Below are positions 11,708-64,000 of a stretch of DNA of 64,000 bases, one piece after another (position 1 is the stretch's first letter; each line of letters begins with the position of its first letter). Under the pieces are notes generated by a model. The model did no database searches and was not told the DNA's origin. It saw nothing but the letters and a program-made list of their open reading frames with translations. The DNA is from Acidimicrobiia bacterium. GTDB taxonomy: Bacteria; Actinomycetota; Acidimicrobiia; Spongiisociales; UBA11373. The stretch lies in assembly GCA_040878325.1 (NCBI GenBank), contig JBBDMM010000010.1:1-64000 (forward strand). Reading direction: 5' to 3'. Position numbers and translations under genes: made by a program.

Positions 11708-11753
11708 GGGGCGAGATTGTATGACCCCTCGACGCCCGTTACGGGCGCCAGTT

Positions 11754-11783
11754 AGGGCCGTTTGGAGGGGGTCTTGTGCCTTT
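11754..11783. promoter_or_regulatory. Possible DosR/OsdR-type binding sites in divergent promoter
   Basis: AGGGCCGTTTGG and GGGGTCTTGTGCCTTT partly resemble AGGGCC-N4-GGCCCT; weak match. Confidence 0.3.
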
Positions 11784-11825
11784 CCGCCGTCTCGGCGGCC
11801 GAAGCGCCCCGGGTATCGTGGGGTC

Positions 11826-12503
11826 GTGACGAAGGCACTTCGCATCGAACTGGTGGACGACCACGAAGTGGTCCGCAGTGGCCTGAAGTCGATGCTCGAC
11901 GCCGAAGACGACCTCCAGGTCGTCGGCGAGGCAGGCTCGGTCGAAGAGGCCATCCGCCGGGTCGGCTTCGACGAGCCCGACGTGGTGATCCTCGACGTAC
12001 GGCTCCCCGATGGAAGCGGGGTGGAGGCTTGCCGCGAGATCCGCACCCGCTGGCCCGACATCAATGTTTTGATGCTCACCTCGTTCGCCGACGACGAGGC
12101 CCTTTTCGCCTCGATTCTCGCAGGAGCGTCCGGCTACGTCCTCAAGCAGATCAAGGGATCGGATCTCATCGAGAGTGTGCGCAAGGTGGGTCGCGGCGAG
12201 TCCCTCCTCGATCCCGAGATGACTGACCGGGTGTTCCGCCGCATTCGCGGCGAGGAGCAGGGCGACCCGCTGCTGGCCCGGCTCAGCAAGCAGGAGCGTC
12301 GTATCCTCGAATACATCGCCGAAGGCTTGACGAACCGGCAGATCAGTGAGCAGATGTTCCTCGCCGAGAAGACCGTCAAGAACTACGTCTCCAACGTCCT
12401 CGCCAAGCTCGAGATGAGCCGTCGCAGCGAGGCGGCCGCCTATGCCGCCAGGCTGCAGGCAGAGAAAGAGCATCGATACCCACCGGAGCAATGGCCGTCA
12501 TGA
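11826..12503 (+). CDS. NarL/LuxR response regulator (DevR/DosR-like)
   Basis: LVDDHEVVRSGL, DVRLPDGSG, LTSFADDEAL, GLTNRQI, AEKTVKNYVSNVLAKL. Confidence 0.92.
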   Translation: MTKALRIELVDDHEVVRSGLKSMLDAEDDLQVVGEAGSVEEAIRRVGFDEPDVVILDVRLPDGSGVEACREIRTRWPDINVLMLTSFADDEALFASILAGASGYVLKQIKGSDLIESVRKVGRGESLLDPEMTDRVFRRIRGEEQGDPLLARLSKQERRILEYIAEGLTNRQISEQMFLAEKTVKNYVSNVLAKLEMSRRSEAAAYAARLQAEKEHRYPPEQWPS

Positions 12504-35711: not shown

Positions 35712-37487
35712 ATGGACCGCACGTTCCTGATCCTCGGCGGCGGCGGCATGGTGGGCACCGAAGTAGCTCGCCAGATTCTGCGTCTCCCCCCGTCGCAGAC
35801 GGGGGGAGTACCCGCCGAAGGCGGGGGAGGGGGGCAGCGGAGACAGCGTGCGCGTGGACACGACTCTTCTCTTGCGGAAGGCTGGAGACTGGAGACTGGC
35901 GACTGGAGACTCATCCTCGCCACCCTCACCGAACCCGAGGCCCAAGAAGCCGTCGATGCCCTGCAACAGGTCGCCCCGAACGGCGTCGACATCGTTGGCG
36001 AGTGCGGCGACATCTTCCTCGCCGAAGGCCTCTGCCACATGCCACGGAGGCAACTTCTCGATGACCCGGACGCCCGCCGCCAGGTGTTCGACGACATGCT
36101 GGGCCCGATCGACGCCGCCTACGAGCGTTCCCATCTCGCCGCCCTCATCCGCAAGTACCGCCCCGATGTGATCGTCGATGCGGTGAACACCGCCACCGCC
36201 ATCTCGTATCAGGACGTGTCGACCGCGGCGGTGATCGCCGAACGCGACGCCGAATCCCTCCTCGCAGGCCAGAACCCAGATGATCTCCCCGACCACATCC
36301 AGTCGCTGATCCTGTCGATCGCGGTGCCCCAACTGGTGCGCCATGTGATGATCCTCGAGCGGGCGATGCGCGACGCCGGCACCCGCCTGTACCTGAAGGT
36401 GGGCACCACCGGCACCGGGGGGATGGGCCTCAACGTGCCCTACACCCACAGCGAGGACCGCCCTTCGGCCAAGCTGCTGGGCAAGACTGCGGTGGGTTTC
36501 GCCCACACCGGGCTGCTGTTCCTGATGGCCCGCACCCCGGGCGGCCCGAACGTCAAGGAAGTGAAGCCGGGCGCCCTGATCGGCTACCGCAATGTGGAGC
36601 ACCGGACGATCCGGGAGCGGGGCGAGACCGTGTGGTGCTACCAGGGGGTGCGGGAGCCGCTGGGGGAGCGCCTCGACCTGCATCGGGATTCGAAAGACTT
36701 CACCCCGCTGTTCGACCTGCAGTTGCCGGTGGTGGACACCGGGGAGAACGGGGTGTTCACCAAGGGCGAGTTCGAGGCGATCACCGAGTTGGGCCAGATG
36801 GAGCTGGTCACCCCCGAGGAGGTGGCGGCGGTGTGCCTGCGGGAGATCACCGGCGCCAGCACCGGCCACGACCTGATCGCCGCCATCGACGGAGCGGTGA
36901 TGGACCCCTCGTACCGGGGCGGGGTGCTGCGGTCCCGGGTGTTGACCCGCCTGGAGTGGCTGGAACGCGAGACCAAGACCCACAGCGTGGCGCTGGGCCA
37001 ACTGGGCCCGCCCGAGTTGTCCAAACTGTTGTGGGAGGCGGAGTTGATCGGGATGTGCCAGGGGACCATCCCCGGTGCGCTCCAGGCGACCCCGGCCGAG
37101 TTGAGCCGGGAGGTGACCCAGTTGCTGGACCGCCGGGCGGGGCTTAGCGACACGATCGTGTCCCTGGGCATCCCCATCCTCGAGTCCGACGGCGACACCC
37201 TCCGCCGGGGCCCCCGGTTGCGGATCCCCGAAATGCCCGGGGAGGACACCGTGGCGGTGACCGCCGCCGACCGGGACCGTTGGGCGGCCAAGGGCTGGGT
37301 CGACCTGCGGGAGGCCAACTTCGAACGCTGGCAGAAGCGGCTGCGGGCGATCATCGAAGCCCGCCCCGAAAAGGGCGAAACCGGCTCCTCATCGGTAGCC
37401 GCCGGCACCTCGGAGACCGAAGAGATCCGCGCCGGCGCAGTGGTGGCCTGGGTGCTGGCCAACGAGATGGGCGGACATCGGGGCTGA
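35712..37487 (+). CDS. Uncharacterised Rossmann-fold (short-chain dehydrogenase-like) protein with in-frame repeat insertion
   Basis: ILGGGGMVG glycine-rich motif; blocks DAVNTAT, GTTGTGGMGLNVPYTHSE, DTGENG; codon usage typical of the host. Confidence 0.75.
   Translation: MDRTFLILGGGGMVGTEVARQILRLPPSQTGGVPAEGGGGGQRRQRARGHDSSLAEGWRLETGDWRLILATLTEPEAQEAVDALQQVAPNGVDIVGECGDIFLAEGLCHMPRRQLLDDPDARRQVFDDMLGPIDAAYERSHLAALIRKYRPDVIVDAVNTATAISYQDVSTAAVIAERDAESLLAGQNPDDLPDHIQSLILSIAVPQLVRHVMILERAMRDAGTRLYLKVGTTGTGGMGLNVPYTHSEDRPSAKLLGKTAVGFAHTGLLFLMARTPGGPNVKEVKPGALIGYRNVEHRTIRERGETVWCYQGVREPLGERLDLHRDSKDFTPLFDLQLPVVDTGENGVFTKGEFEAITELGQMELVTPEEVAAVCLREITGASTGHDLIAAIDGAVMDPSYRGGVLRSRVLTRLEWLERETKTHSVALGQLGPPELSKLLWEAELIGMCQGTIPGALQATPAELSREVTQLLDRRAGLSDTIVSLGIPILESDGDTLRRGPRLRIPEMPGEDTVAVTAADRDRWAAKGWVDLREANFERWQKRLRAIIEARPEKGETGSSSVAAGTSETEEIRAGAVVAWVLANEMGGHRG
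37429..37487 (+). repeat. 59-bp direct repeat, copy 1 (3' end of the Rossmann-fold gene)
   Basis: Matches 39541-39599 with 2 mismatches. Confidence 0.9.
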
Positions 37488-45617: not shown

Positions 45618-45745
45618 GGGGACTGCAGCACCCGGGGGAGGAGCCCCGAGATCAGTACACCCACAGCGAGAACGACTACTCGGCCAAGCTGCTCGGTCAA
45701 TACGACGGTGGGTTCCGCCCCGTGCCAGATTGGCTCATCTACTGA
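45618..45745 (+). pseudogene. Degenerate fragment homologous to the internal YTHSE..SAKLLG region of the gene at 35712-37487
   Basis: TACACCCACAGCGAG (45656-45670 = 36441-36455) and TCGGCCAAGCTGCT (45680-45693 = 36465-36478) are exact, with identical spacing. Confidence 0.7.
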
Positions 45746-45868
45746 GATTGCGGACTAATATCATTGTGATTGTTGCTCTCATCCCCCATGAGAGCGATTG
45801 TCACGAAGATCCGAGCAGCTGAATGTGCAATCCTTTGCGTGTCAACGAATCGCAAGGAGGTACAGGTC

Positions 45869-46216
45869 GTGTTCCCCACCCGCCACGCAATCCAGAGATT
45901 TCAGGAACGAGTTGCACCAGTGACAGCGGCCGAGGCTGCCCGACGCATCCGGGAGGCCGCCGCCTCGGCAACGATCCGCACCCGTCCGAGATGGTGGACG
46001 CCCGTGGCGCCCGCGGCCGGCATCCGCTTCGCGTACCCGCACACTCTGCCGGGAGTCTGCTTGCTGATCCGCGAAGACGCGGTCATCACCATCTTTGAGC
46101 GCCGTAGCTGCCGGAGGTGGCATGCCAGCCGGGCCGATAGTCTCGAGTCGGCAGCCGGCCGCTCCCAGCCATATCGGCGAGCGGCCCCTGGGCAACGCCT
46201 CGAGGAGGCCGCATGA
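45869..46216 (+). CDS. Small protein with a T-x-HA-xx-R-xx-ER motif (BECR/RelE-like ribonuclease fold suspected)
   Basis: AGGAGG RBS; PTRHAIQRFQER and C-terminal LLIREDAVITI; ATGA overlap with the next gene. Confidence 0.65.
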   Translation: MFPTRHAIQRFQERVAPVTAAEAARRIREAAASATIRTRPRWWTPVAPAAGIRFAYPHTLPGVCLLIREDAVITIFERRSCRRWHASRADSLESAAGRSQPYRRAAPGQRLEEAA

Positions 46217-47448
46217 GCGTCGGAGGTTCGGGGATTCCCCGGCTGCAGGACCTTTCATACCTTGAGGCGGCGATGGAGGCCCTGTCACGAGGGGCGACAT
46301 TCGGAGAAGTCCGCATAGCCCTTGTTGATTGGGCGCGTGATCTTGAGCGCGCGGCGGACTTCGAAGGCTCGTTCTCGGAGAAGAAGTGGGAGGGGGTCCG
46401 AGCCGACGCAACCCAGTATGTCCACAACGTGGTCGACGTCCTCAAGGAGGGAGTTCGATTGGGATGGATCGAGAAGCCATCTCAGAGCCTGCCCTCAACG
46501 CCGCGCTCCGCCTATCTGCACCTCGCCGACAGGTTCAACCTGCGCCCAGCCGGGGAGCAATGGGTCGCTCTGTTACGCGCTAACAGGCGTGCCGCTTACG
46601 ACCATCTGGTGGGGTTGCTCCTCGACGTTCATCCACAGTTTGAAGGATTCCTCCGAGCGGTCGGTGCCCGCGAGGACTCCACCGCACCTTCGATGACGGT
46701 GCCACTGCTCCGGTGGGACCGACATGAGCACGAGGCGGTCTATCTGGACAACTTGATCAGCGTGACTCAAGCCGCTGTCGCGGCCGGTTCTGTCGGCTGG
46801 TCCGTTCCACCCTCTCGGATCGAGGAGTCAATTCGATCGTATGTGACCCGAATCGCACAGCGCCGTGAGGCTCGTGGCAAGCCCCAGACACGCCGCGGGT
46901 TCCTCAAGACTTGTGAGGAAGCGGCGACGAAGTGCGCCTTCGCTGGGGCGGGCGTTCGACTCGACTACGTCAGCATGGAGCTGCTGAGGCGTTGGACGAA
47001 ATTTCTCGGCCTTGCGGACTTCACATACCACGCTCCTGAGCCGTACGCCCTGCGCTTCTGGGCGACCTCATCGGTCTTGTCGGCAGGCGTTGGAACGGCG
47101 ATCGCGCGGCGCGTTGGCTCTGAGATCCGCGGGGGAGTGCTAAGAGCCACCATCGAAGCCTGGAACGAGCGGCGAAGCCTGCCAGGTGCAGCGATGTATG
47201 CGCCCGTGTGGGAGTTGCGCGCTGCTGTTTGCTGGCGGATGAGGATCAGTGACACGGAGTGGGACAAGGCGATTTCGGAGCTTGTCCACGGCGGACATGC
47301 TGATGTCGGGTACAAGATCCACCTCGACCGGGCGAGCCTCGGGGCCGTGCCCGGCTCAACCAGACCGCTCGTGATACCGACCGCAGCCGGACAACTCCGT
47401 GTGTACAACGTTATGACCGTGGTCGCGGACCAAAAGGAGAAGAAATGA
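46213..47448 (+). CDS. Hypothetical protein with predicted winged-helix domains
   Basis: LKEGVRLGWIE..FNLRPAG wing-like motif; C-terminal PVWELRAAVCWRMRIS helix motif; translationally coupled. Confidence 0.7.
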   Translation: MSVGGSGIPRLQDLSYLEAAMEALSRGATFGEVRIALVDWARDLERAADFEGSFSEKKWEGVRADATQYVHNVVDVLKEGVRLGWIEKPSQSLPSTPRSAYLHLADRFNLRPAGEQWVALLRANRRAAYDHLVGLLLDVHPQFEGFLRAVGAREDSTAPSMTVPLLRWDRHEHEAVYLDNLISVTQAAVAAGSVGWSVPPSRIEESIRSYVTRIAQRREARGKPQTRRGFLKTCEEAATKCAFAGAGVRLDYVSMELLRRWTKFLGLADFTYHAPEPYALRFWATSSVLSAGVGTAIARRVGSEIRGGVLRATIEAWNERRSLPGAAMYAPVWELRAAVCWRMRISDTEWDKAISELVHGGHADVGYKIHLDRASLGAVPGSTRPLVIPTAAGQLRVYNVMTVVADQKEKK

Positions 47449-48785
47449 CACACAACACACCACGAACCGCTGGCACCGTCTGGCTCCGGCGCAACTGGAA
47501 GCTCACCGACAACCCCTTCCCCACGAGCGGAATTGTTCGGCTCGGCGGCCTGGATCGTCGTGAGAATGGCCTGCTGTACGACGATCAAGTGAACGGCGTC
47601 AAGTACACGGAAGCGGTCGAGAAGTTTGTACTCGGCGCGGCGTTCTCAGGTCTCCGATTTGGGTTTCTCTGGTCGATGGGATTGGGGGGTGCCGACTCTG
47701 AAGCGCGTGGCTTCGGGAAGTCCGCGCTGATGCAGCACCTCGCATGGTCGTTGAATGAAGACTTCGGTCAGTCCGCGTATCTGTCGTGTGGCCTCGATGA
47801 GAGCGACGCGGCAGAGGCACCCATCTGCGGGCTGCTCACGAGCTTCGACACGACGCAGATCCGTAGTCTCGCTGCAGCCCTCTTCACCGCCGTTGAGTAT
47901 GCCGTCGACTTCAAGACGGAAGATGATGTGCCAACGCTGGCCGTGCGGCTGAGGAATCGTCTTGCTGCTATCGCGGGCTCGGACGAACCCTCCGAATTGG
48001 TCAACCTCGTTCTTGCGGAGCAACGCAAGTTGCGCGGACGCACGCTCGGCCCACCTGACGAGAAGTTGGTGAGGGCCTTGTGCGCGGACGAGCCGTCGCT
48101 TGCAATCGACTACCTCGATCAGGTCAAGCCGGCAACACGAACTCGCAGCGGTGCGAACTTCCTGTCGACGTTTCTCTTGTTTGCATCAGCAGCCGGGATG
48201 AAGCATGTGCTTCTTTGCTGCGACCAATTGGAGGACCTCGCGTCGACGACGACCGCGAAATCGAAGCGTGACCTTGAGACCGAACGGTTCCGCGATGTCA
48301 TTCTCGAGACGCTTCCAATGGCCGACATGCTGGCCGTCGTCGTGACGATGCATCCCCGTGCGGCGCTCGTCATCGGGTCGGCATGGCAGTTGGCCGATCT
48401 CCCGAGTTTCGAGCCGAACGAACTCGCCAATAGGCACCGTGTTGTGGTCCTTGAGGTGTTGAAATCCGTGGCAGAAGCCACCGGGCTGCTCCGAACCTAC
48501 CTAGATGCCGCGCGCAAACCGGACAGTGAGAGGAGTTCAGGCGATCTCCACCCGATGACCCAGGATGCCGTTGATGCGATGTTCGCGCGCTCGAATCGCA
48601 AGCCGAGGGACATCCTCCGGAAAGCACATGGAATATTCGAGTACGCCGCCGGAGAGAACGTCGAAGTCATCGATGGCCACATTGTCGCCCAGTACCTCGA
48701 CGCCCTTGGACCTGACGAGGACGACGCTGACGATCGGCCGAGCCTCGCGGGCCCAACCGGCGCGCCGGACTGGAGTTCGGGTTGA
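47445..48785 (+). CDS. P-loop ATPase (STAND/Cdc6/ExeA-like AAA+)
   Basis: N-terminal NPF, Walker A RGFGKS, Walker B VLLCCDQLE, C-terminal KPRDILR. Confidence 0.8.
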   Translation: MTHNTPRTAGTVWLRRNWKLTDNPFPTSGIVRLGGLDRRENGLLYDDQVNGVKYTEAVEKFVLGAAFSGLRFGFLWSMGLGGADSEARGFGKSALMQHLAWSLNEDFGQSAYLSCGLDESDAAEAPICGLLTSFDTTQIRSLAAALFTAVEYAVDFKTEDDVPTLAVRLRNRLAAIAGSDEPSELVNLVLAEQRKLRGRTLGPPDEKLVRALCADEPSLAIDYLDQVKPATRTRSGANFLSTFLLFASAAGMKHVLLCCDQLEDLASTTTAKSKRDLETERFRDVILETLPMADMLAVVVTMHPRAALVIGSAWQLADLPSFEPNELANRHRVVVLEVLKSVAEATGLLRTYLDAARKPDSERSSGDLHPMTQDAVDAMFARSNRKPRDILRKAHGIFEYAAGENVEVIDGHIVAQYLDALGPDEDDADDRPSLAGPTGAPDWSSG

Positions 48786-49519
48786 CCGCGGTGAGCTTGG
48801 CCGTGTTGTGTAGGGACTTGTTCCTTCTGGGCCATGCGCATGTCGCCGCTGGACAGGCCGGTGAAGGCCACGCCTTTGAGAGACGCGTGCGACACCATCT
48901 GGACGCTTCGGGACTGCCTACGGCTCAGGGCTTTCGCGTACTCGGGCGCCATAGTGTGTCCGGTCTGTACCACCAACTCGATGAGCAAACCCGTTGCGCC
49001 GAGGCGATGGTCGTCGGGGAATGGAAGGCGTACAGGGGAACCATCCCAAAGAACGACTTGTTGCGTTTCAAGGCGGCGACGGATGATTATTGGCTCTCGG
49101 GGCCACGACCGCCGGATGTCCCTGTTATCAGGGTGTTCGGTGGCACCGGTCGGGTAACCGAGGCAATGCGCATCTATGCGGCCCAGCACGGCATCGTGGT
49201 CGTGACTCCCGACCGGTGGCCGATTCCGACCGTACTGGACACTCGCTTGGTTTGGAGACCTGGCGATCTGGAGCCCGTCAGCGCGATTGACCACAAGACG
49301 ATGACGAGCCTCATCCGGCCCCTCGGTACGGTCCTCGCCCAACAGCCAGATGGATCGTGGCGGATTCCTCCTGTGCCAGCGGCCCCAGATCTTCGGCACC
49401 GACTCGACGTGTGGGCTCACCACTCGGATCGAGCATGGGGCTGGTGGGATGACAAAGTTCCTGAACGTTTCGACCTCTTGCTCGAAGAAGGGGCACGCGG
49501 ACTCGGGAGGGTCGCGTGA
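48782..49519 (+). CDS. PD-(D/E)xK restriction-endonuclease-like protein
   Basis: GHAFE..HQLD..VGEWK motif pattern; TTGA overlap. Confidence 0.7.
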   Translation: MTAVSLAVLCRDLFLLGHAHVAAGQAGEGHAFERRVRHHLDASGLPTAQGFRVLGRHSVSGLYHQLDEQTRCAEAMVVGEWKAYRGTIPKNDLLRFKAATDDYWLSGPRPPDVPVIRVFGGTGRVTEAMRIYAAQHGIVVVTPDRWPIPTVLDTRLVWRPGDLEPVSAIDHKTMTSLIRPLGTVLAQQPDGSWRIPPVPAAPDLRHRLDVWAHHSDRAWGWWDDKVPERFDLLLEEGARGLGRVA

Positions 49520-50178
49520 CGCTTCTATCAAAGTGCCGCAAGTGCCGATCGATACTCGCACCATGGGAGGTGGCGGCCGGCGGCTGTAGGTGCGAGGGCC
49601 CGAGAACGAAGAGTCTCGCCGAAGTGTTCTACTCGGTGTTATGCACAGCGCAGGACCCGCTGCCTCGCTACGACATCTTGCGAATCGCCAAGGCGGACTT
49701 CGACACCTTCGCTGGTGACATGACGGCGACCGCCGTTCTGGCTGCCGACAAGCGTTTCGTGTGGACAGGCCGTGGCGTTTACGGCCTCTACAGGCATGGC
49801 CCGCTGCCGGGAGCACGCAATCTTGAGGAAGTATCCAGACTCGTGTTGGCCGCGGTCGGGACCCTCCACGTTGACAGCCTGGCGTTCATCCTCAAGCAGC
49901 TTGGATACCGTTTTTCACTTGCGTCACTCCGTAACGCGCTCAGCAGATCTGAGTACATCACGTGGAGGGGCGGCTGGCACCATGCGTCTAGCGACATAGC
50001 GCGCCGGGCCCTTCGCTCCGACCTTCGTGCCGTTCCGGGCAAGGAGGCGGCGGAGTTTGATGAGATCATTGACAGGCTCCGGATTGTGGGCAATCGCGCA
50101 GTCGCCCGGCGCAAGAGGATCGTGAGCGCCCCCCGTACCCTGTCGGAGATCTCCGGGATCGATTGGGGTGGCGCTTGA
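49516..50178 (+). CDS. Zn-ribbon-like plus tandem HARE-HTH-like DNA-binding protein
   Basis: CRKC..CRC N-terminus; DKRFVWTGRGVYGL resembles the HARE-HTH / RNAP-delta wing; second HTH follows. Confidence 0.6.
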   Translation: MTLLSKCRKCRSILAPWEVAAGGCRCEGPRTKSLAEVFYSVLCTAQDPLPRYDILRIAKADFDTFAGDMTATAVLAADKRFVWTGRGVYGLYRHGPLPGARNLEEVSRLVLAAVGTLHVDSLAFILKQLGYRFSLASLRNALSRSEYITWRGGWHHASSDIARRALRSDLRAVPGKEAAEFDEIIDRLRIVGNRAVARRKRIVSAPRTLSEISGIDWGGA

Positions 50179-50496
50179 GGGACGGTGGGGTTCCGTGACT
50201 CGAGATTTCCCAATACGCAGCGAAGCAACTACCGGTTCCATATGGCAACGTCGATAGCGATCATGGGAGGCGTCAAAAGGGGTGACGCCGAATCGCTTGC
50301 TGCCGTCGATCTCTCATTAATCAAGCACTCCCTGAATCCTGCCTACAAGGCCGTCGATAAGGTCATGAACAAGGAGGTCGCCCCTGCAACACGCTAGACC
50401 AAGTCGCAAAGTCCTCGATCTCCACCCGCAATCGCCAGCCCCGGCATCGCGCCGGTCGGCCTGTCTATTGTGCGGCCCGGCGCGGGAGGACACAGT

Positions 50497-52398
50497 TTGA
50501 ACTGGCTATGGGATCAGACCGATGCTGGGAAGATCGGTCTATCTGGCGATATCGCGAAACTGTTCCGACACGAGGAGCCCAAGCAGCCCGGCGTCTTCGC
50601 TCAAGATGCACCACCTGCTGCCGCCACTCTGCTTGCCCGCGAAGTGATCCAGAACTCCTGGGACGCAGCGATCGAGCTCAAGGAGCAGCTAGGCCCCTCG
50701 GCGGATCATCAGTTCTCGATCACCTTCGAATTCGCCGACTTGATCGGTGATGAGAAACGCGCGCTAATCGAGGCGCTCGACCTGGCAGGCCTGGCCGACC
50801 GGGTCGGGCAGATCGATCGCCGGTCGATTGGACTGGGCCAGCACGACTGCCTTGATCAACTCGATGACTCGGGGGCCCCCCTGAGCGTGCTGAGGATCCT
50901 TGAGCACGGTGCCACCGGGATGTATGGGCCGTGGACCCAGAACAAGTCACACATGTATCTGGCTCTCGTCAGCCTCGGGTATACCGAGAAGTTGGCTGGC
51001 GCTGGTGGGTCATATGGGTATGGGAAAGCCGGATTGATCAACGGGTCCCGGATACGGTCTGTGATCGCGTACAGCTGCTTCGCCGAGCGGCAGGATGACC
51101 CCGGTGTTACCCGGCGGCTTTTGGGGATGACGTATTGGGGCCAGCACGACATCGGCGGTGCCAATTTCACCGGGATTGGAAGCCTCAGCACCGGAAGAGG
51201 TGGCCTAATCGAGCCCCATATCGATGATGAGGCAGACAGCGTCGCCGCCTCGATGGGCTTCACCGCGAGAAGTAGTGATGAGGTCGCTGGGCTCGGCACA
51301 TCCTTCCTCCTCATCGATCCAACGGTTGGGCCGGAGGATCTGAGGCGGGCCATCGAGCGATCATGGTGGCCGGCCCTGCACGAGGGCGACTTCATCATCG
51401 ATATCACCGGTGCAGACGGGTCGTCCCACCCGCCGCGCCCGATGCAGGACGAGACCCTGCGGTCGTTCATCGATGCGTGGGAACTGGCGGTCGGACGCCG
51501 AGACGCTCGCCGCGACGAGTGGGCGAGCGAGCTGTCAGGCCCGAGCGCCGCATCCCCAGATGGCGAACGTTTCGACGCCGTCGGGAACCTGGGCTTGGTC
51601 GCGGATCTTTCGGGCTGGTCCTACGCGGACGCGCAGGTCGGGCCCGAGGACGAAGAGGTCAGCCAAAAGAGTCTCGTTGCGCTGACCAGGGGACCCCGCA
51701 TGGTCGTTGAGTACTTTGTGGCTGGGCAGAGTCCGCCCTATCTGCGTGGGGCGTTCAGTGCTTCTTCCGAGATAGACGACCTGTTGAGGCGAACTGAGCC
51801 CAAGGCCCACGATTCCTGGAGAACCAAGCCAAGCGACGGGGAGGTCGACCCCTATGCGGCGACTTTGGCAGACCATGTCATCAAGCGAATTCGCTCTGCG
51901 GTCAACAACCATCGCGGTCGCCTCAAGCCGGCAGTGCCCCCACCCGAGGATCTGAACCTTCCGTTCTTCAATGAGATCATGCGGCGAGTCATGTCGGGTG
52001 CAGGGAAGGGAACTCGACAGCCTGTACCCGAGGTGCGCGAGATTTCGATTCATCTCAGGCAGGGCCCCAGGGAGTCCTCAAACGGATTGATCGAAATGGA
52101 GGGCACCGCGACGTTCTCATTGTCGGACCATTACGACGGGGAATCGGCGGATGTAGAGGTGTCGATCTCCTACAAGTTCATCGAAGATGGCCGCGTCGGG
52201 GCGTCGGCGGACCTAACCCTTTCAGCGCCCGACGGTGCCGTCGCCGTTGGGCCTGGGGTGTACCGTGCCAGGCTTGATCGCGAGAGCACGATCGCGATCG
52301 GCTTCTGCTCGGAACCCTATGACCCCCGGTGGTCCGGACGGCTATTTGCCAATGCCGAGATCACAAAGGTTGCTCACTCGGGAATAGCTACCGAATGA
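50497..52398 (+). CDS. GHKL (MORC/HSP90-like) ATPase domain protein
   Basis: REVIQNSWDA (N box), EHGATG (G1-like), GGSYGYGK (G2); GGAGG RBS before TTG. Confidence 0.8.
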   Translation: MNWLWDQTDAGKIGLSGDIAKLFRHEEPKQPGVFAQDAPPAAATLLAREVIQNSWDAAIELKEQLGPSADHQFSITFEFADLIGDEKRALIEALDLAGLADRVGQIDRRSIGLGQHDCLDQLDDSGAPLSVLRILEHGATGMYGPWTQNKSHMYLALVSLGYTEKLAGAGGSYGYGKAGLINGSRIRSVIAYSCFAERQDDPGVTRRLLGMTYWGQHDIGGANFTGIGSLSTGRGGLIEPHIDDEADSVAASMGFTARSSDEVAGLGTSFLLIDPTVGPEDLRRAIERSWWPALHEGDFIIDITGADGSSHPPRPMQDETLRSFIDAWELAVGRRDARRDEWASELSGPSAASPDGERFDAVGNLGLVADLSGWSYADAQVGPEDEEVSQKSLVALTRGPRMVVEYFVAGQSPPYLRGAFSASSEIDDLLRRTEPKAHDSWRTKPSDGEVDPYAATLADHVIKRIRSAVNNHRGRLKPAVPPPEDLNLPFFNEIMRRVMSGAGKGTRQPVPEVREISIHLRQGPRESSNGLIEMEGTATFSLSDHYDGESADVEVSISYKFIEDGRVGASADLTLSAPDGAVAVGPGVYRARLDRESTIAIGFCSEPYDPRWSGRLFANAEITKVAHSGIATE

Positions 52399-53384
52399 GT
52401 AGAGAGACCAGGACGGTCCGCCCCTTCGTCGGTCTTGATGCCCTTGAGCGGTGCTTGGATCACACGACCCTTTACTTCGGCCAGGAACCGTGTGAACCCA
52501 ACTCAAGTTTAGCAGCTGACATAGAGATCCATGAGTTCCTGATAAGGCCCGTATCGCTGGAGTGGGTGCCCGAGGGCCAGTTCGAGGCCTTCCGCGCTGG
52601 ACTCCTAGAGGCATGCGTTGCGGCGGGTATAGCCCCTGAGTCTGTGAGTCTCGCTGCGGTTGCGATGAGCGGCTTTCTGAAGCTGTCGCAGGTGGTGCTC
52701 AATGTTTCGCTTGTGGAGCTCGATCGTCTGGATCGCGTTGTCGACCTCGCCGCTGACCCACGTCCTGACCCGTTTCGCACTCCGTTCAACGGATTCGGTG
52801 TCGACGTGTATCTCCTGCTTTCGGAGGCCGTCGATGCTCGGCCCCTGAAGCCGTCGAAGAAAGGAACCTGGCTCTCGCGGGTCAGTTTCCGAATCGACAC
52901 GCACCTCGCGCCAGCCCTGCTTCCGCCCACTCCGCTGACCGGTGAGCTCCGACAGCAACTGGGCCTTCCGGCTCGCACGCTTCGATATTTGCAGTTCGGG
53001 GATCACGATCTCCTCGAGCCCTACCGTGAGCAGGAACAGCCAGTCTTCTACGTCGACGAAGACATCCTCGCGCAGCTAAGCGTTCGTCGGACGTCGGCTG
53101 CGAGCAAAGCGATCCAGCTTCAGCTAGCCCAGGACTTCGTGGCCGCGGTGGTTCGTCGCGCCGCAGGTCAGCCGGATCTTGAGACGGTCGCCTACGACGA
53201 TGTTCGCGAGAGTCTCCTCGGTAGCGTCATCCGGCTCGCCGCCGGTCCAAAAGCCTTGGATGGCGATCGGCAAACCCTTCTGGTGATGGTCCGCAACGAC
53301 CCCGAGTACGTCATCGCCAGAGCCGAGCACTTCGTCGATGTGGCAAGCGGATTTGTAAATGTCCTGAAGGACGGGGACTCATGA
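52395..53384 (+). CDS. Hypothetical protein in the methylase operon
   Basis: 329-aa ORF, ATGA-coupled at both ends. Confidence 0.75.
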   Translation: MSRETRTVRPFVGLDALERCLDHTTLYFGQEPCEPNSSLAADIEIHEFLIRPVSLEWVPEGQFEAFRAGLLEACVAAGIAPESVSLAAVAMSGFLKLSQVVLNVSLVELDRLDRVVDLAADPRPDPFRTPFNGFGVDVYLLLSEAVDARPLKPSKKGTWLSRVSFRIDTHLAPALLPPTPLTGELRQQLGLPARTLRYLQFGDHDLLEPYREQEQPVFYVDEDILAQLSVRRTSAASKAIQLQLAQDFVAAVVRRAAGQPDLETVAYDDVRESLLGSVIRLAAGPKALDGDRQTLLVMVRNDPEYVIARAEHFVDVASGFVNVLKDGDS

Positions 53385-54073
53385 CCTACCCCGTCCTGAC
53401 CGGAACGAAGTGCGCAGAGCTCGCTCGGCAGCTCTTGCAGGGGACGTCCCCTGCGATCGAGGCGTTTGCCGACTGGGTGGGCGTTGGCCCTGAGGTCGAC
53501 CTCGGCCCGATTGAGCGGGCTGCGGCGCTGATTCTCGCCGAGATGACGTCCGCCGGTGATTCCGACAAGGACATGTTCGAGGGCCGTTACTGCGTGCTCA
53601 TTCACGACGCGTTGGCGGCGGTTCCGATCGAGATTCGGGATGACCGGGGCTTCTGGCGGTTCCTCGCCCTCAAGTACTTCTGGCCATTCATCAAGTGGCG
53701 CGAGGCAGAAGCGTTCGAGCGTGAGAACCACCTGAGATATGTGGACGCTGCCTCCAGTACGGAGTCAGTCATCACTCGAATGCACCTTCGGGCGGCGGCA
53801 GTCGGCGGTCAGGAGTGGGCGCGTTTGGCTGGTGGAATCCCCAAGTCCACGGACTTCTGGCGCAGTCACATCCTTAGAGTGCGAACCTGTACCGCGCCGC
53901 CGGTGGCGAGGGCCTTTGCGTCTCGCCAGATGGACGAGAGGCTCAGCACCCCCTTGGTTCGGCAAGTAGCGCGCCGGGTGAATCGAACATGGACGAACGT
54001 GGAGTTGCACCTTTACGATGACGATGAGGCGCGCGATCTCATCGATGATCTCTGGTTGGGTGATGCCGAGTGA
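53381..54073 (+). CDS. DUF6339-like protein
   Basis: D.GFWRFLALKYF..IKWR and ITRMHLRA resemble my recollection of DUF6339; coupled to the methylase. Confidence 0.55.
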   Translation: MTYPVLTGTKCAELARQLLQGTSPAIEAFADWVGVGPEVDLGPIERAAALILAEMTSAGDSDKDMFEGRYCVLIHDALAAVPIEIRDDRGFWRFLALKYFWPFIKWREAEAFERENHLRYVDAASSTESVITRMHLRAAAVGGQEWARLAGGIPKSTDFWRSHILRVRTCTAPPVARAFASRQMDERLSTPLVRQVARRVNRTWTNVELHLYDDDEARDLIDDLWLGDAE

Positions 54074-55392
54074 CTGAACGGCTGGTGATGGATACTTACT
54101 CGGCTCTGCAAGGTGGTAGGCAGACCTTTGAGGGGGTCGCCGGGCGCGTCGTGCATCGGTTGTCATTGGGCGCTCTCCGGTCGACGTCATCCGTGGCATC
54201 TCCCGACTGGGCAAACTCCGATCCCAAAGGCGCGTGGTGGCGCGCCTACCTCGAGGGCAGCGTTCCGGTTCCAGGGGTCGTCGAGAGTCGCGTGCTGCGC
54301 ACCGTCGATCTTTTCTGTGGACCCGGTGGCTTGGCCAATGGACTCAAGGCCTTGTGTTCTGACCTCGGCGTTACGGTGGTTTCAGAGCTGGCGGTCGATC
54401 AGGATCCGAACGCCACGGTCGTGTACGCGGCGAACCACGGGACCCGCCGTCGTTCGACTGATTCGGTGGCTCGGCTAGTCGACTTCAGCGTCCGCAAGCG
54501 GCCCGAAGGTGCCGATTTCACATATCCACCGGACTTGACCGACCGCGGGCTTTCGCAAGCGATCAACGGGGTCGATTTGGTCCTGGCAGGACCACCGTGC
54601 CAAGGCCACTCGAACCTGAACAACCACACCCGCCGTGAGGATCCTCGTAACAGCCTGTACTTGACCGTGCCGGCATTCGCGGTCGCGATCGGCGCGCCGA
54701 TGTGCATTATCGAGAATGTCCCGGCGGTCCTGAACGACTCCACTCGTGTCGTTGAGATTGCGAGATCCCTATTCGAGCGCAACGGATACCACGTCGAGAC
54801 TGGGATGCTGTCAGCCGCTCACATGGGTTGGCCCCAAACCAGGCGTCGCCACTTCCTAGTCGCGCGGCGCGAGGTGCCGCCCATTCCTTTGGACACGGTC
54901 GCTCGCACGCTGGGGGAGGATTCCCCGAGATCCGTTTGGTGGGCGATCGGGGATCTCGAGGACATCACGAGCGACAGCCTTCTCGACGCCGTCACCGGGC
55001 TCTCTGCCGAGAACGTGAGCCGGATCGACTGGCTGTTCGACAACGATGAGCACGACCTGGCACTGCCGGAGCGCCCGGTGAGCCACAGGGGTGGAACCAC
55101 CTATACGGCCGTCTACGGGCGCCTACAAAAGGATGCACCGTCCCAGACAATCACCACTGGATTCATGTCGCCGGGTCGGGGCAGATACGTGCATCCGACT
55201 CGCCGTCGCGTCTTGACGGCGCATGAAGCCGCTCGCATCCAAGGGTTCCCCGACACTTATGCATTCAATCCGAATCCATCCCAGCCACCGACGCGGGCCC
55301 TTCTTGCCAAGTGGATTGGCGACGCAGTCCCTATGCCCCTCGGATATGGAGCTGCGCTTTCGGCCCTAGGGGGTGGGCTTGGCCAAGAATGA
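54070..55392 (+). CDS. dcm: DNA (cytosine-5)-methyltransferase
   Basis: VDLFCGPGG (I), GPPCQGHS (IV), ENV (VI), QTRRRHF (VIII), EAARIQGFPD (IX), IGDAVP (X). Confidence 0.95.
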   Translation: MTERLVMDTYSALQGGRQTFEGVAGRVVHRLSLGALRSTSSVASPDWANSDPKGAWWRAYLEGSVPVPGVVESRVLRTVDLFCGPGGLANGLKALCSDLGVTVVSELAVDQDPNATVVYAANHGTRRRSTDSVARLVDFSVRKRPEGADFTYPPDLTDRGLSQAINGVDLVLAGPPCQGHSNLNNHTRREDPRNSLYLTVPAFAVAIGAPMCIIENVPAVLNDSTRVVEIARSLFERNGYHVETGMLSAAHMGWPQTRRRHFLVARREVPPIPLDTVARTLGEDSPRSVWWAIGDLEDITSDSLLDAVTGLSAENVSRIDWLFDNDEHDLALPERPVSHRGGTTYTAVYGRLQKDAPSQTITTGFMSPGRGRYVHPTRRRVLTAHEAARIQGFPDTYAFNPNPSQPPTRALLAKWIGDAVPMPLGYGAALSALGGGLGQE

Positions 55393-55696
55393 GAGTTGGT
55401 CGGATACTGAGATCAGGGCCTCGCTCGAGTGCTACACGGCCATGGTGTTGCTAGAGCATGCCGGCATCGGGTTCTCGAAGGCCGACTTCCGTCGATTAGT
55501 AGAAGGGATGCTCGCCGGTCGATCTGAGAAGGCGATCGACTTCAAGTGGTGCAATGTCAGCGCCATCCTTGAAGAATCCGGGTTCTCCTATTTAAGCGCG
55601 TACAAGCCGATGGAGCACTATCAGGAGCGACTGCGAGAACTGACCGGCGTCTGGATGCTCGAGCACCCGCTTCTCCGCAAGCTCCTGAGCGGGTGA
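55373..55696 (+). CDS. Stand-alone helical domain resembling the N-terminus of HNH/DUF3883 restriction nucleases
   Basis: WSDTE..Y..M..E, GRSEKAIDFKWCNVSAIL, YKP; no nuclease domain follows. Confidence 0.65.
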   Translation: MGLAKNESWSDTEIRASLECYTAMVLLEHAGIGFSKADFRRLVEGMLAGRSEKAIDFKWCNVSAILEESGFSYLSAYKPMEHYQERLRELTGVWMLEHPLLRKLLSG

Positions 55697-55700
55697 GCTG

Positions 55701-56126
55701 TTGGTCGTGAGCGGACCTTCCGCCAGCTCGCCTGCTGCCCTCAAGCGGATGCAGGCGACTCGTCGGCGCGATACCCCGAAGGAGGTCGCCCTACGGAGTG
55801 CGCTCCACCGCCTGGGACTGCGGTTTCGGCTCCACCGACCGATCGAAGGTGTCGCTCGAACCAGGCCCGACGTCGTCTTCATATCGGCCCGGGTAGCTGT
55901 ATTCGTGGACGGATGCTTCTGGCATCGCTGTCCCGAGCACGGGACCGACCCCAAGGCGAACACTCGATGGTGGAAGGAGAAGTTGGACCGCAACGTCGAG
56001 CGCGACCGGCGGGTGGGCGAGCAGCTCGCCGAATTGGGATGGAGGGTGATGCGGATTTGGGAACACGAAGACCCTGATCAAGCTGCGGACCGGGTAAACG
56101 CGGCTGTCCGTGCGTTACAGCGATAG
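55701..56126 (+). CDS. vsr: Very short patch repair endonuclease
   Basis: RMQ..RRDTPKE, RPDVVF, FVDGCFWHRCPEH, NVERD, GWRVMRIWEHE. Confidence 0.95.
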   Translation: MVVSGPSASSPAALKRMQATRRRDTPKEVALRSALHRLGLRFRLHRPIEGVARTRPDVVFISARVAVFVDGCFWHRCPEHGTDPKANTRWWKEKLDRNVERDRRVGEQLAELGWRVMRIWEHEDPDQAADRVNAAVRALQR

Positions 56127-57871: not shown

Positions 57872-59920
57872 ATGACCTACGACCGAGCCCTTGAGCTGCT
57901 CCGGTCTGCGACCGGGTCGAATGTGGCCGAGTTTCGTGGCGGGCAGTGGGAATCGATCGAAGCGGTGGTTGTCGGGCGGCGCCGGGTCTTGGTCGTCCAG
58001 CGCACGGGGTGGGGCAAGTCGGCGGTGTACTTCGTTGCGACTCGTCTGCTGCGTGAGGCGGGCATGGGACCAACCGTCGTGGTGTCGCCGCTTCTCGCAC
58101 TGATGCGGAATCAGATCGAAATGGCCGCGCGGCTCGGTCTTTCGGCTAAGACGGTCAACTCGACGAATCGAGACGACTGGGACGCGATCTTTGTCGAGAT
58201 CGCCGAAGGCCGCGTCGACGTCCTCTTCATCTCCCCGGAGAGGCTGAACAACCCGGAGTTCCGCTCGGAAGTGTTGCCCGATCTCCTGAAGTCCCTTGGT
58301 CTCCTTGTGGTCGATGAGGTCCACTGCATCTCGGACTGGGGCCACGACTTCCGGCCCGACTACCGCCGGTTGGCCAATGTCGTGGCCCTGTTGCCCCCGG
58401 GGGTGGCGGTGCTCGGCACCACCGCGACGGCGAACGATCGGGTGGTGTCGGATGTTCGGGAGCAGCTGGGCGAGAACCTGATGGTGGTGCGAGGGCCGCT
58501 CGACCGAACCAGCCTGCGGCTGCAAATTGTCGGGCTTGAGTCACCGGCCGACCGGCTCGCCTGGCTCGCCGGCACCATTCCAGGCCTTGCAGGCTCGGGA
58601 ATCGTCTACACGCTGACGATCAAAGGTGCCCAGCGGGTCGCCCGCTGGCTTCGGTCCCAGGGGGTCGACGCGGTTGCCTATTCGAGCGAGACCCCTGACG
58701 AGGAGCGGATCGACATCGAGCGACGGCTCAGCGATGGCTCGCTGAAGGTGGTCGTGGCCACCTCGGCACTTGGGATGGGTTACGACAACCCCTTCATCCA
58801 GTTCGTCATCCACTACCAGTCGCCGGGCTCACCGGTGGCGTACTACCAGCAGGTCGGCCGCGCCGGGAGGGCGGTCGACTCGGCCATCGGCATCCTCATG
58901 ACGGGATCAGAAGACGCCGACATCCAGGACTACTTCATCCGCACTGCGTTCCCCACGGAGGAGCATGTCGCGGAGATCCTGGGGGCTCTCGATGGTGCAG
59001 ATGGCCTTACGGTGCGGCAGCTCGAGCAAGTCAACATCCCGGCGGCCCGCCTCGCCGGTGCTCTCAAGGTGCTCGAGGTGGAGGGGGCGGTGTACCGCGA
59101 AGGTTCGCGGTGGTACCGATCGGCCGAGCGGTACCAGTACCCCAGGGAGCGCGTTGCGGCCGTGACAGCCCAACGTCGTGCCGAACAGGCGATCATGCGC
59201 GAGATCATCGAAGGGGATGGATGCATCCTGCATCAACTGCGTCTCAGCCTCGACGATGACTCGAGCGCGCCATGCGGGCGGTGCAGCAACTGCGTCGGCG
59301 AAGTTCTCCCTGTCGCAGTTCCCGGTGGCCTCGCGCAGGCGGCGGTCGACTTCATTCGGGGGGAGTCCACCACCATCGAACCTCGTAAGCGGTGGCCGTT
59401 CCCGATCAACGGAACCACCACGATCGGGCGTCCCTTTGCCGAGGGGCGGGCGTTGACGCGGTGGGGGGACCCTGGGTTGGCCGCCCTGGTGGAGCGGGGC
59501 AAGTACCGCGACGGTTCCTTCTCTGACGACCTCGTGATCGCGGCGGTGGAATCCATTCGCCGGTGGTCGCCGCGCCCGGCCCCAGAATGGGTGACCTCGG
59601 TGCCCGGTCTTGCTTCAGGTGATCTGGTCGGCGACTTCGCGGTTCGTTTGGCCGATCGCCTCCGTCTGCCATACCTCCCGGCCGTGAGAAAGTTGAGGGT
59701 GAATCGGCCGCAGAAGACCATGGAGAACTCGACCCGGCAGGTCAAGAACCTACTGGGGGTGTTCGAAGTGGTGTCGCCCTGTGCTGGGCCGGTTCTCCTG
59801 GTGGACGACATGGTGGATTCACGGTGGACCCTGACCGTTGTCGGCGATCTTCTCGGGAGGAGCGGGGTAAGTCACGTGTACCCTCTCGCGCTCGCGGACA
59901 CATCACGGGGAAGCGGATGA
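57872..59920 (+). CDS. recQ: RecQ-family helicase with C-terminal ComF-like phosphoribosyltransferase domain
   Basis: TGWGKS, DEVH, SDWGHDFRPDY, TATA, YYQQVGRAGR, CGRCSNC; VLLVDDMVDS PRPP-loop. Confidence 0.9.
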   Translation: MTYDRALELLRSATGSNVAEFRGGQWESIEAVVVGRRRVLVVQRTGWGKSAVYFVATRLLREAGMGPTVVVSPLLALMRNQIEMAARLGLSAKTVNSTNRDDWDAIFVEIAEGRVDVLFISPERLNNPEFRSEVLPDLLKSLGLLVVDEVHCISDWGHDFRPDYRRLANVVALLPPGVAVLGTTATANDRVVSDVREQLGENLMVVRGPLDRTSLRLQIVGLESPADRLAWLAGTIPGLAGSGIVYTLTIKGAQRVARWLRSQGVDAVAYSSETPDEERIDIERRLSDGSLKVVVATSALGMGYDNPFIQFVIHYQSPGSPVAYYQQVGRAGRAVDSAIGILMTGSEDADIQDYFIRTAFPTEEHVAEILGALDGADGLTVRQLEQVNIPAARLAGALKVLEVEGAVYREGSRWYRSAERYQYPRERVAAVTAQRRAEQAIMREIIEGDGCILHQLRLSLDDDSSAPCGRCSNCVGEVLPVAVPGGLAQAAVDFIRGESTTIEPRKRWPFPINGTTTIGRPFAEGRALTRWGDPGLAALVERGKYRDGSFSDDLVIAAVESIRRWSPRPAPEWVTSVPGLASGDLVGDFAVRLADRLRLPYLPAVRKLRVNRPQKTMENSTRQVKNLLGVFEVVSPCAGPVLLVDDMVDSRWTLTVVGDLLGRSGVSHVYPLALADTSRGSG

Positions 59921-60855
59921 AGCTGTCAGACGACGCCAAGGCCGTGCTCGTGCTGACCACTCGCCTCGGCGACCCGCAGCGCCCCGCTCTTCCCCCTGGC
60001 CAGTGGCACTCCTTCTCGCAGGCTCTCGGCGACTCTGGCCTCAGGCCATGCGATGTGTTCTCGCCCGACGCTCTCGAACGCATGGGACTCGACCCGGAGC
60101 GGAGGGCGCGGATCGATACCCTCGTCGCCGACGCCGCCCACGTGATGGTGGACCTCGAGTCGGTGAGTGCCCGTGGCATCTGGGCGATCACCGCGGCGGA
60201 TGAGGATTACCCAGAGCGGCTCAGAACCCTGGACTCCCTGGCACCACCGGTTATTTTCGGGGTCGGTGACCACCACCTCCTCGGTCGGCGGGGGGTGGGG
60301 ATTGTCGGGTCGCGTGACGTGGGGCCCGACGGGGTGGACGTGGCCCGGGAGGTTGCTACCGCCGCGGCCGAAGAAAGCCTGACAGTTCTGTCGGGGGCGG
60401 CACGCGGCGTCGATCAGCAGGCGATGGCAGCGGCGTATCAGGCGGGCGGGTCAGTAATAGGCGTCCTCGCCGACAGCCTGGAACGGCAGATCAAGACCGC
60501 CGATGTGCGGTCCTCGCTCGACGCAGGCACCACATGCTTGGTCACCCAGCAGCATCCCAAGACTGGCTTCACTCCGGCGGCGGCGATGGCCCGCAACAAA
60601 CTGGTCTACGCGATGGCATCAGCGACGTTCGTGGTGGCATCGGGCCTGAAGGGTGGGACCTGGGAGGGGGCGACGGAAGCGCTGCGAAGAGGCTTCGGGC
60701 GCGTGGCGGTCTGGCGCGGCCCAGGCCAGGGGCCGGGGAACGCGGAACTCGAGAAACTCGGTGCCCGCTCGGTCGACAAGGTTGCCGACCTGTTCGAATA
60801 CGTCGCGGAGGAACGGCTGCCAGAGCATGAGCAACTCACGATCGAGCTGAGTTAG
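59917..60855 (+). CDS. dprA: DprA/SMF-family protein
   Basis: DEDYP, IVGSR, SGAARGVD, MARNKLVY, GGTWEGA; ATGA-coupled to the helicase. Confidence 0.88.
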   Translation: MKLSDDAKAVLVLTTRLGDPQRPALPPGQWHSFSQALGDSGLRPCDVFSPDALERMGLDPERRARIDTLVADAAHVMVDLESVSARGIWAITAADEDYPERLRTLDSLAPPVIFGVGDHHLLGRRGVGIVGSRDVGPDGVDVAREVATAAAEESLTVLSGAARGVDQQAMAAAYQAGGSVIGVLADSLERQIKTADVRSSLDAGTTCLVTQQHPKTGFTPAAAMARNKLVYAMASATFVVASGLKGGTWEGATEALRRGFGRVAVWRGPGQGPGNAELEKLGARSVDKVADLFEYVAEERLPEHEQLTIELS

Positions 60856-63777: not shown

Positions 63778-64000
63778 GTGTCTGTAACCGATCCACAACT
63801 CCGATCGCTGTATGCTCGGCTTGAGGAGGTCCTCGGCCCCGATCACGCCGAAACGCTCATGACCCATCTTCCTCCGAGGCACGAACTCGCCACCAAGGGT
63901 GATCTTCAGGAACAGATAGGTCTGGTGCGCTCGGATCTTCAGGAACAGATAGGTCTGGTGCGCTCTGATCTTCAGGAACAGATAGGTCTGGTGCGCTCGG
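63778..64000 (+). CDS. Coiled-coil repeat protein (partial), paralog of 35163-35561
   Basis: MSVTDPQLRSLYARLEEVLGPDHAETLMTHLP..ELATKG then (DLQEQIGLVRS)n; runs off the window. Confidence 0.8.
   Translation, partial: MSVTDPQLRSLYARLEEVLGPDHAETLMTHLPPRHELATKGDLQEQIGLVRSDLQEQIGLVRSDLQEQIGLVRS
63901..64000 (+). repeat. 33-bp coding tandem repeat (11-aa hendecad)
   Basis: GATCTTCAGGAACAGATAGGTCTGGTGCGCTC(G/T) x3, no spacers. Confidence 0.9.

Follow-up and report, generated by a model that had tools for sequence, protein, structure and literature searches.

What kind of system is encoded by five tightly packed genes at the left edge of an island of low guanine-plus-cytosine (GC) content in an Acidimicrobiia bacterium? 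The genes occupy positions 45869 to 50178 of the window that we analysed, the 64,000-nucleotide stretch at positions 1 to 64,000 of contig JBBDMM010000010.1 (assembly GCA_040878325.1), and an earlier sequence-only reading had taken them for a new five-gene anti-phage system. Our analysis shows that they form a real, conserved, uncharacterised module built around A, a protein modelled as three winged helices, and B, an ATPase of the Orc1/Cdc6 type. We consider it on balance probable that this cassette is a mobile, methylase-free module that targets the DNA of phages or plasmids in defence; binding, cleavage and defence itself are all steps that we infer. The palindrome and the genes are laid out as follows.

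45775 to 45795 (core CTCAT-N5-ATGAG, 45778 to 45792), without strand: palindrome, likely operator of the cassette
45869 to 46216, plus strand: g1, accessory protein of 115 residues with the motif RHAxxRxxxR
46213 to 47448, plus strand: A, 411 residues, modelled as a triple winged-helix protein, predicted DNA reader
47445 to 48785, plus strand: B, AAA+ ATPase of 446 residues, Orc1/Cdc6-TnsC-BrxD type
48782 to 49519, plus strand: C, 245 residues, predicted PD-(D/E)xK nuclease (E33, D67, E80, K82)
49516 to 50178, plus strand: E, 220 residues, with two HARE-like helix-turn-helix repeats and a CxxC...CxC cluster, predicted to be an accessory reader of DNA

The coordinates bear out the description of five overlapping open reading frames (ORFs) on one strand, each sharing 4 nucleotides with the next: 46213-46216 (ATGA), 47445-47448 (ATGA), 48782-48785 (TTGA) and 49516-49519 (GTGA). 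One caveat concerns C: since its homologues begin near residue 3-4 of the window protein, the true start may be GTG 48791, which would leave a gap of 5 nucleotides and no overlap. The first gene, g1, starts at GTG 45869 and is preceded by AGGAGG at 45855-45860. The motifs that the sequence-only reading had listed are all present in the translations, and its placement of the cassette at an island edge agrees with a drop in GC content at about 46 kb, from 0.66-0.71 to 0.62-0.63, where the cassette opens the low-GC island. The ratio of nonsynonymous to synonymous substitution rates (dN/dS) is below 0.4 for all five ORFs in the tested pairs (two pairs for g1, at 0.19 and 0.37; three for C). Because the gene order recurs in records from Actinomycetota, Chloroflexota and Pseudomonadota, the linkage of these genes is not due to chance. 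As had been expected, no PADLOC model of the 2023 version used here matches the cassette: The five window proteins have no PADLOC, NCBIfam or above-cutoff Pfam match, 17 further homologues of A, B, C and E have no PADLOC match at E 0.001, and profile searches of PDB sequences, made for B, C, E and g1, returned nothing significant.

Which of the five genes belong together can be read from a genome scan that gave 42 loci, 35 of which were kept as complete close loci; the seven others were dropped because they lie at contig ends (L031, L032, L037, L039), are broken (L040, L041) or have no profile match (L042). A and B are present in 35/35, E in 33/35, C in 13/35 (one of them frameshifted) and g1 in 9/35. 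The expected co-occurrence of homologues thus holds for A with B in every complete locus, and the five-gene system does not survive as such, as the whole set is found in 8/35 and the nuclease gene is gone from 22/35. Neither C nor g1 occurs in any of the 20 Streptomycetaceae loci (Streptomyces and Kitasatospora). A C profile found no C homologue anywhere in 10/10 nuclease-free genomes, and a wider profile, which recovered both of its positive controls, again had no match in two of them. Beyond the close loci lies a distant clade of at least 16 metagenome loci, in which, among the matches listed, C follows B in 13/14 loci with downstream DNA, A precedes B in 7/7 loci with a whole B and room upstream, and neither E nor g1 was detected in any; L069 is without C and L074 holds only part of B. 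Farther out, A-B-C is present with a weakly matched A in L076, an archaeal-like viral contig or provirus, and the same three genes stand in the order B-A-C on an Azospirillum plasmid (L077). In L076 (7424-10580), the very distant A-B-C appears, from the neighbouring sequences, to sit like cargo among head and tail genes of virion assembly. A quick tree places nuclease-free loci in at least two separate positions among nuclease-bearing ones; A-B-C is therefore probably the ancestral set, to which E was added later and from which C has been lost repeatedly. The cassette is rare: 60 relatives gave no full-length match, and 400 genomes of the phylum gave two matches, both partial or broken. A look-up of sequencing runs listed no RNA run, and one DNA run that may be the source sample. 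It also decays: Broken copies with frameshifts, stops or a transposase inside C were seen at G155:C2 237218-238238, L029 and L040.

The fold of B is that of an AAA+ ATPase (model with a predicted local distance difference test score, pLDDT, of 89). Its best structural match is A. pernix ORC2 (Z 17.8, root-mean-square deviation 3.5, 275 aligned residues), followed by Cdc6/Orc1, TnsC (Z 14.8) and MuB, with TnsC and MuB together spanning Z 13.2-14.8; Foldseek adds RdrA and BrxC, and the nearest named ESM Atlas clusters are BrxC_BrxD (10-74% BrxC_BrxD). The Walker A motif is GFGKS (89-93) and the Walker B motif CCDQLE (258-263). Among 57 homologues, from close to distant, G89, K92 and D260 never vary, 54 keep E263 and 46 keep R283. 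All 85 of 85 close homologues have Q at position 261, where the wider set has Q, D or E. This Walker B sequence, DQxE instead of DE, suggests a slow switch or clamp and not a motor. The model of B has no C-terminal winged helix. The earlier assignment of B as a STAND/AAA ATPase is thus upheld in its AAA+ half, now specified as Orc1/Cdc6-type, and fails in its STAND half, as no Avs/STAND sensor repeats were found. In an Avs/STAND receptor, a single polypeptide unites an effector, an NTPase and a repeat sensor; B differs, with 446 residues of which 12-435 fall in the AAA+ match, in a comparison that included no search for longer fusions of B. A library-wide search gave 435 B-like representatives; B had no match in annotated phage records, and P0347 had none in plasmids.

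A, for which winged-helix motifs had been noted, is modelled with three winged-helix domains (about 13-130, 160-290 and 301-405; pLDDT 91). Structure searches matched winged helix-turn-helix (wHTH) proteins at both ends, and the FokI recognition domain aligned over residues 1-293 (Z 6.8, root-mean-square deviation 5.4, 191 aligned residues). E79 and D351 are the sole acidic positions among the columns that at least 13 of 15 A proteins conserve, and for this reason A may be read as a binder.

A family pattern of the PD-(D/E)xK site is D...ExK, and the E..D..ExK motif first noted in C is sustained by the alignment, in which D67, E80 and K82 are kept in 18/18 homologues down to 15-24% identity. 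We therefore predict, from sequence conservation, that C is a PD-(D/E)xK nuclease. NERD matches it weakly (2/16 members, E 0.012); ASCH does not match in 16 members at E up to 1, in a test of sequence only. E keeps C7, C10 and C24 in 36/36 members and contains an internal repeat (hhalign probability 76%, E 2e-5). The proposal that it is a HARE-HTH protein is weakly supported: PF05066 matches 6/36 members (best E 8.3e-4) and does not match the window protein. In the available text of PMC11037411, HARE-HTH is suggested to read modified bases. Longer fused forms of E were absent among 8000 candidates, a weak test. At the place that E holds in the close clade, a protein with sigma-70 region 4 or several helix-turn-helix motifs follows C in L061 (3666-5090) and L072 (4969-6933); these proteins show no detectable likeness to E (hhalign probability <1%). 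As for g1, H6, A7, R10 and R14 are present in 10/10 members, and it weakly matches the phage families phrog_6182/8252, whose function is unknown. The sequence-only reading had taken it for an RNase-like protein of the BECR/RelE kind, for which the motif is the sole support, there being no Pfam match in 10 members and no match among PDB sequences; we read g1 as a dispensable add-on.

The palindrome, which the sequence-only reading had overlooked, lies 91 nucleotides before g1. Its exact core occurs in 24/77 loci and in 23 of those 24 upstream of the operon. A relaxed pattern, chosen after inspection of the data, is found in 36/38 close leaders, 34/38 of which are credible once misplaced matches in L004 and L029 are discounted; similar repeats before L030, L063 and L066, which have another core or spacer, were left out of the counts. 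Both arms change together in 8 rows, from CTCAT/ATGAG to CTCGT/ACGAG, the arms reach up to 22 bp and the spacer is mostly GGG, CCC or GCC. A TTG resembling a -35 element follows 22 nucleotides downstream of the palindrome in 18/36 aligned leaders; a scan for sigma-70 promoters gave no match. In 5/5 carrier genomes, the strict core is present as a single copy, at the operon. The window site scores highest in its own genome, which is circular since the site was in the training set, and the extended pattern has four matches in viral contigs, one at this operon and three without cassette genes. We also considered the palindrome as the mark of a global regulon and rejected this, as it was found in 12/401 genomes of the phylum against 10 for a reversed control, which is chance level. 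Since the site is conserved across three phyla, its binder is suggested to be encoded by the cassette, and A is favoured because L022, a single locus, keeps the site without E. In L022, the palindrome is present twice (8495-8615) and an unknown opposite-strand ORF (11320-12354) replaces E. At the edge of the island, immediately to the left of the palindrome, 45628-45720 is one copy of a 94-bp repeat whose other copy, 77% identical, is at 36412-36504.

The form without a nuclease is not undergoing decay. Twelve Streptomycetaceae pairs that lack C, which we picked by hand and which are related rather than independent, give dN/dS values of 0.07-0.27 (A), 0.02-0.14 (B) and 0.06-0.30 (E). Its placement is also regular: The A-B-E trio directly follows a tRNA-Thr gene in 10 loci, and in 7/10 a BLAST search found a copy of the tRNA 3' end immediately past the stop of E, so that the trio stands alone between tRNA and repeat. 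Degenerate copies were seen by eye in L017 and L019 and none in L012, and an integrase element lies beyond the repeat in 5/10. From this layout, leader-A-B-E appears to be a unit of about 3.9 kb between repeats that resemble attachment (att) sites, without an integrase of its own. Upstream of A in L013, L014, L015, L018 and L020 is a conserved divergent gene on the minus strand that shares its leader with the trio; it is DndB-like in both copies scanned (E 1e-10 and 4e-9).

We suggest a plausible mechanism for this cassette as a defence module. A, whose fold is modelled, would bind DNA, supply in trans the winged-helix contacts that are missing from B, and load B as an ATP-dependent clamp or filament. 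B would then bind ATP and oligomerise on DNA in the manner of Orc1/Cdc6 and TnsC, and the assembly would license C, in which a nuclease-type motif is seen, to cut. In the close clade, E may act as a second reader that adds specificity, perhaps for modified bases; where C has been lost, A-B-E would act against the invader by sitting on its DNA. The palindrome would serve as an operator for one of the cassette's proteins, A being the most likely, and the operon would thereby regulate itself. Several lines of evidence lead us to this defence reading: the folds of A and B, the catalytic-type residues that stay invariant in B and C across distant clades and the co-occurrence of A with B; the patchy spread, with copies found in three phyla as well as in an archaeal-like provirus and on a plasmid; and the defence genes nearby, the cargo position at tRNA integration sites and the purifying selection that persists without C. 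An anti-invader role predicted for related operons in the available text of PMC10853773 points the same way.

Several observations weigh against this. The unit contains no methylase or other self-mark, so that discrimination of self from non-self is unaccounted for, and the effector is likewise unaccounted for in the complete close loci from which the nuclease is missing, given that those of their genomes that were searched hold no C elsewhere. With the palindrome profile, the site went undetected in nine distant loci, and the match was weak at best in the close loci L004, L024, L029, L030 and L032. The likeness of A to the FokI recognition module or SspB is a lead only, Foldseek placing both below significance (E 0.29). 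Finally, the neighbours of many loci are ordinary (L006, L007, L012, L022, L023, L027), and the neighbour list has no matched background.

A narrower form of the proposal would make the DNA coat itself the effector: The triple-wHTH reader would nucleate, on the DNA of the invader, a coat of the Orc1/TnsC-like ATPase, with the nuclease optional, and the trio would be a self-regulated, integrase-less three-gene unit of 3.9 kb at tRNA att sites. We offer this tentatively. DNA coating by NTPase-wHTH systems has been proposed in the available text of bioRxiv 10.64898/2026.10.19.760177.

Other explanations share some of this evidence. The cassette might kill its own cell instead of cutting selectively: A and E would restrain the operon and the nuclease through the palindrome until a phage DNA mimic or a host shut-off frees B and C (and g1), leading to abortive infection. 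The missing self-marking enzyme is no difficulty for such a guard, which is further consistent with the conserved operator-like palindrome at its set distance from the TTG, with the switch-like Walker B of B and with the HAxxR motif of g1 at the head of the operon. All the Streptomycetaceae copies, however, have neither C nor g1 and are still under selection, which leaves no killer there, and we regard this explanation as unlikely.

Somewhat less likely still, to our mind, is a role in maintaining the element itself, in which the palindrome and its AT-rich flanks would be an origin, A an initiator and B an Orc-like loader, together replicating or stabilising the excised att-flanked unit or the host island. 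In structure, B comes closest to an origin-binding protein, initiators typically carry tandem winged helices, the trio is alone between att-like repeats in seven of the ten tRNA-Thr loci and the strict palindrome is single in each genome. Against these stand the fixed distance of the palindrome before a -35-like TTG, the position of the cassette inside islands and between the head and tail genes of a provirus, the predicted nuclease as the probably ancestral third gene, and the absence of a primase, helicase or partition gene among the recurring ORF families and the flanking proteins.

It is improbable, in our judgement, that copies lacking the nuclease are helpers or relics dependent on a nuclease or helicase of another system, with A-B-C as the only working unit. 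The near-constant presence of C in the distant clade and its loss at least twice would fit such a scheme; the low dN/dS of A, B and E in the 12 nuclease-free pairs does not, nor does the absence of a C homologue from all ten nuclease-free genomes searched, where an unrelated partner is still conceivable. Least credible is a remnant of a Tn7/Mu-like transposon, active or domesticated, with B as a TnsC-type regulator, A as target selector and C as a TnsA-like nuclease: TnsC and MuB do rank high for B, but no DDE transposase is shared by three or more loci, the insertion sequence genes of L032 and L040 being sporadic, and the flanking repeats are tRNA 3' ends beside tyrosine integrases.

Returning to the defence module, its surroundings were surveyed in 139 flanking proteins from 34 loci, plus further picks. 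Elsewhere, neighbours include GmrSD, CBASS, Shedu, restriction-modification genes of types I, II and III, AbiEii, HNH and DndB, together with HepT, integrases and relaxases; as a raw list read without a matched background, this accords with the earlier expectation that many neighbours would be defence genes. In the window, the cassette is followed at 50470-56126 by a second one comprising a PDC-M33A-like gene (E 7e-11), an unknown gene, a PDC-M33C-like gene (E 0.003), Dcm/DruM, a 107-residue PDC-S36-like piece and Vsr, after which the island holds REase-ARP and PsyrTA. The genes at 50470-54073 are absent from the 42 related loci, and similar DNA is present in the relative G008. Two PsyrTA-like pairs lie on one contig, at 57872-60855 of the window and at G000:C10 79018-82010, and are 72% and 65% identical. 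Near the right edge of the low-GC stretch, at about 63900-63999 on the minus strand, an 11-residue unit is repeated three times in an open frame as a 33-bp tandem repeat. The empty site of the island was not found, and the matches of its left-flank DNA lie on short contigs of relatives.

How new, then, is the cassette? One sentence in PMC10853773 (Rakesh, Aravind, Krishnan 2024) describes Orc/Cdc6 genes in operons with a restriction endonuclease (REase)-ASCH fusion together with a triple-wHTH protein resembling DndG, and the same text describes Orc/Cdc6-HerA/FtsK capture operons, with an anti-invader role predicted. Because of that sentence, the kind to which the cassette belongs has already been predicted in print, and the cassette is a variant of it. 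Compared with the paper's text rather than its dataset, the two share an Orc/Cdc6-type ATPase, a triple-wHTH protein and mobility, and the REase has a candidate counterpart in C. The cassette differs in that C has no ASCH match and is often lost, no HerA/FtsK gene recurs, B carries neither an iREase nor a wHTH at its C terminus, the predicted reader E stands as a protein of its own and there is a conserved palindrome. The claim that no named system matches thus stands for PADLOC and must yield to this similar architecture in the literature. No other description of the cassette was found in a literature search outside which most subscription papers lay.

The pairing of a reader with such an ATPase is also found in the SspBCD phosphorothioate system, where, according to the available text of PMC10853773, SspB has a triple wHTH and SspC is a Cdc6/Orc ATPase; SspB is among the weak Foldseek matches of A. 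Unlike SspBCD(E) and Dpd, the cassette has no recurrent SspA/SspD or DpdA among the recurring ORF families and the 139 flanking proteins. No Ssp or DpdG/H model matched A or B, and DpdG is a lead from the ESM Atlas only (0.79). With the BrxD of type 2 BREX, B shares its nearest named clusters and the lack of a DNA-binding domain of its own, and the BrxD model touches 3/54 distant B homologues (E 0.002-0.007). BrxD and BrxA are described in the available text of PMC12839542, where BrxD is without DNA-binding domains. The cassette differs in pairing its ATPase with a winged-helix protein and not a helicase, and PglX, PglZ, PglW, BrxC and BrxHI were all absent from 15 window proteins, the recurring ORF families and the 139 flanking proteins. 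FokI-type enzymes likewise combine what A and C are predicted to be, a triple-wHTH recognition module and a PD-(D/E)xK-type nuclease; in the cassette, reader and nuclease are separate, an AAA+ ATPase stands between them and there is no cognate methylase. In Tn7, TnsC is the AAA+ protein, TniQ/TnsD its DNA-binding partner and TnsA a PD-(D/E)xK nuclease, a set to which the cassette offers a same-clade AAA+ protein, a DNA-binding partner and a nuclease, all as predicted. It differs in having no recurrent TnsB transposase and in being bordered by att-like tRNA repeats, terminal repeats not having been searched for systematically. By their text descriptions in bioRxiv 10.1101/2025.01.08.631966, the Streptomyces systems Prithvi, Ukko and Geb differ from the cassette; novelty is stated here without comparison to the gene content of Ceres, Veles and Oshun from the same source. 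The pair of reader and Orc-type ATPase is also part of SspBCD and of predicted operons related to it, in which its task is difficult to single out, and the cassette is its minimal form, with natural versions that carry or lack the nuclease, hosts among cultured Streptomyces and a candidate binding site. It allows two questions to be put to the test directly: how self may be told from non-self without a methylase, and whether an origin-recognition-type ATPase can stop a phage without cutting.

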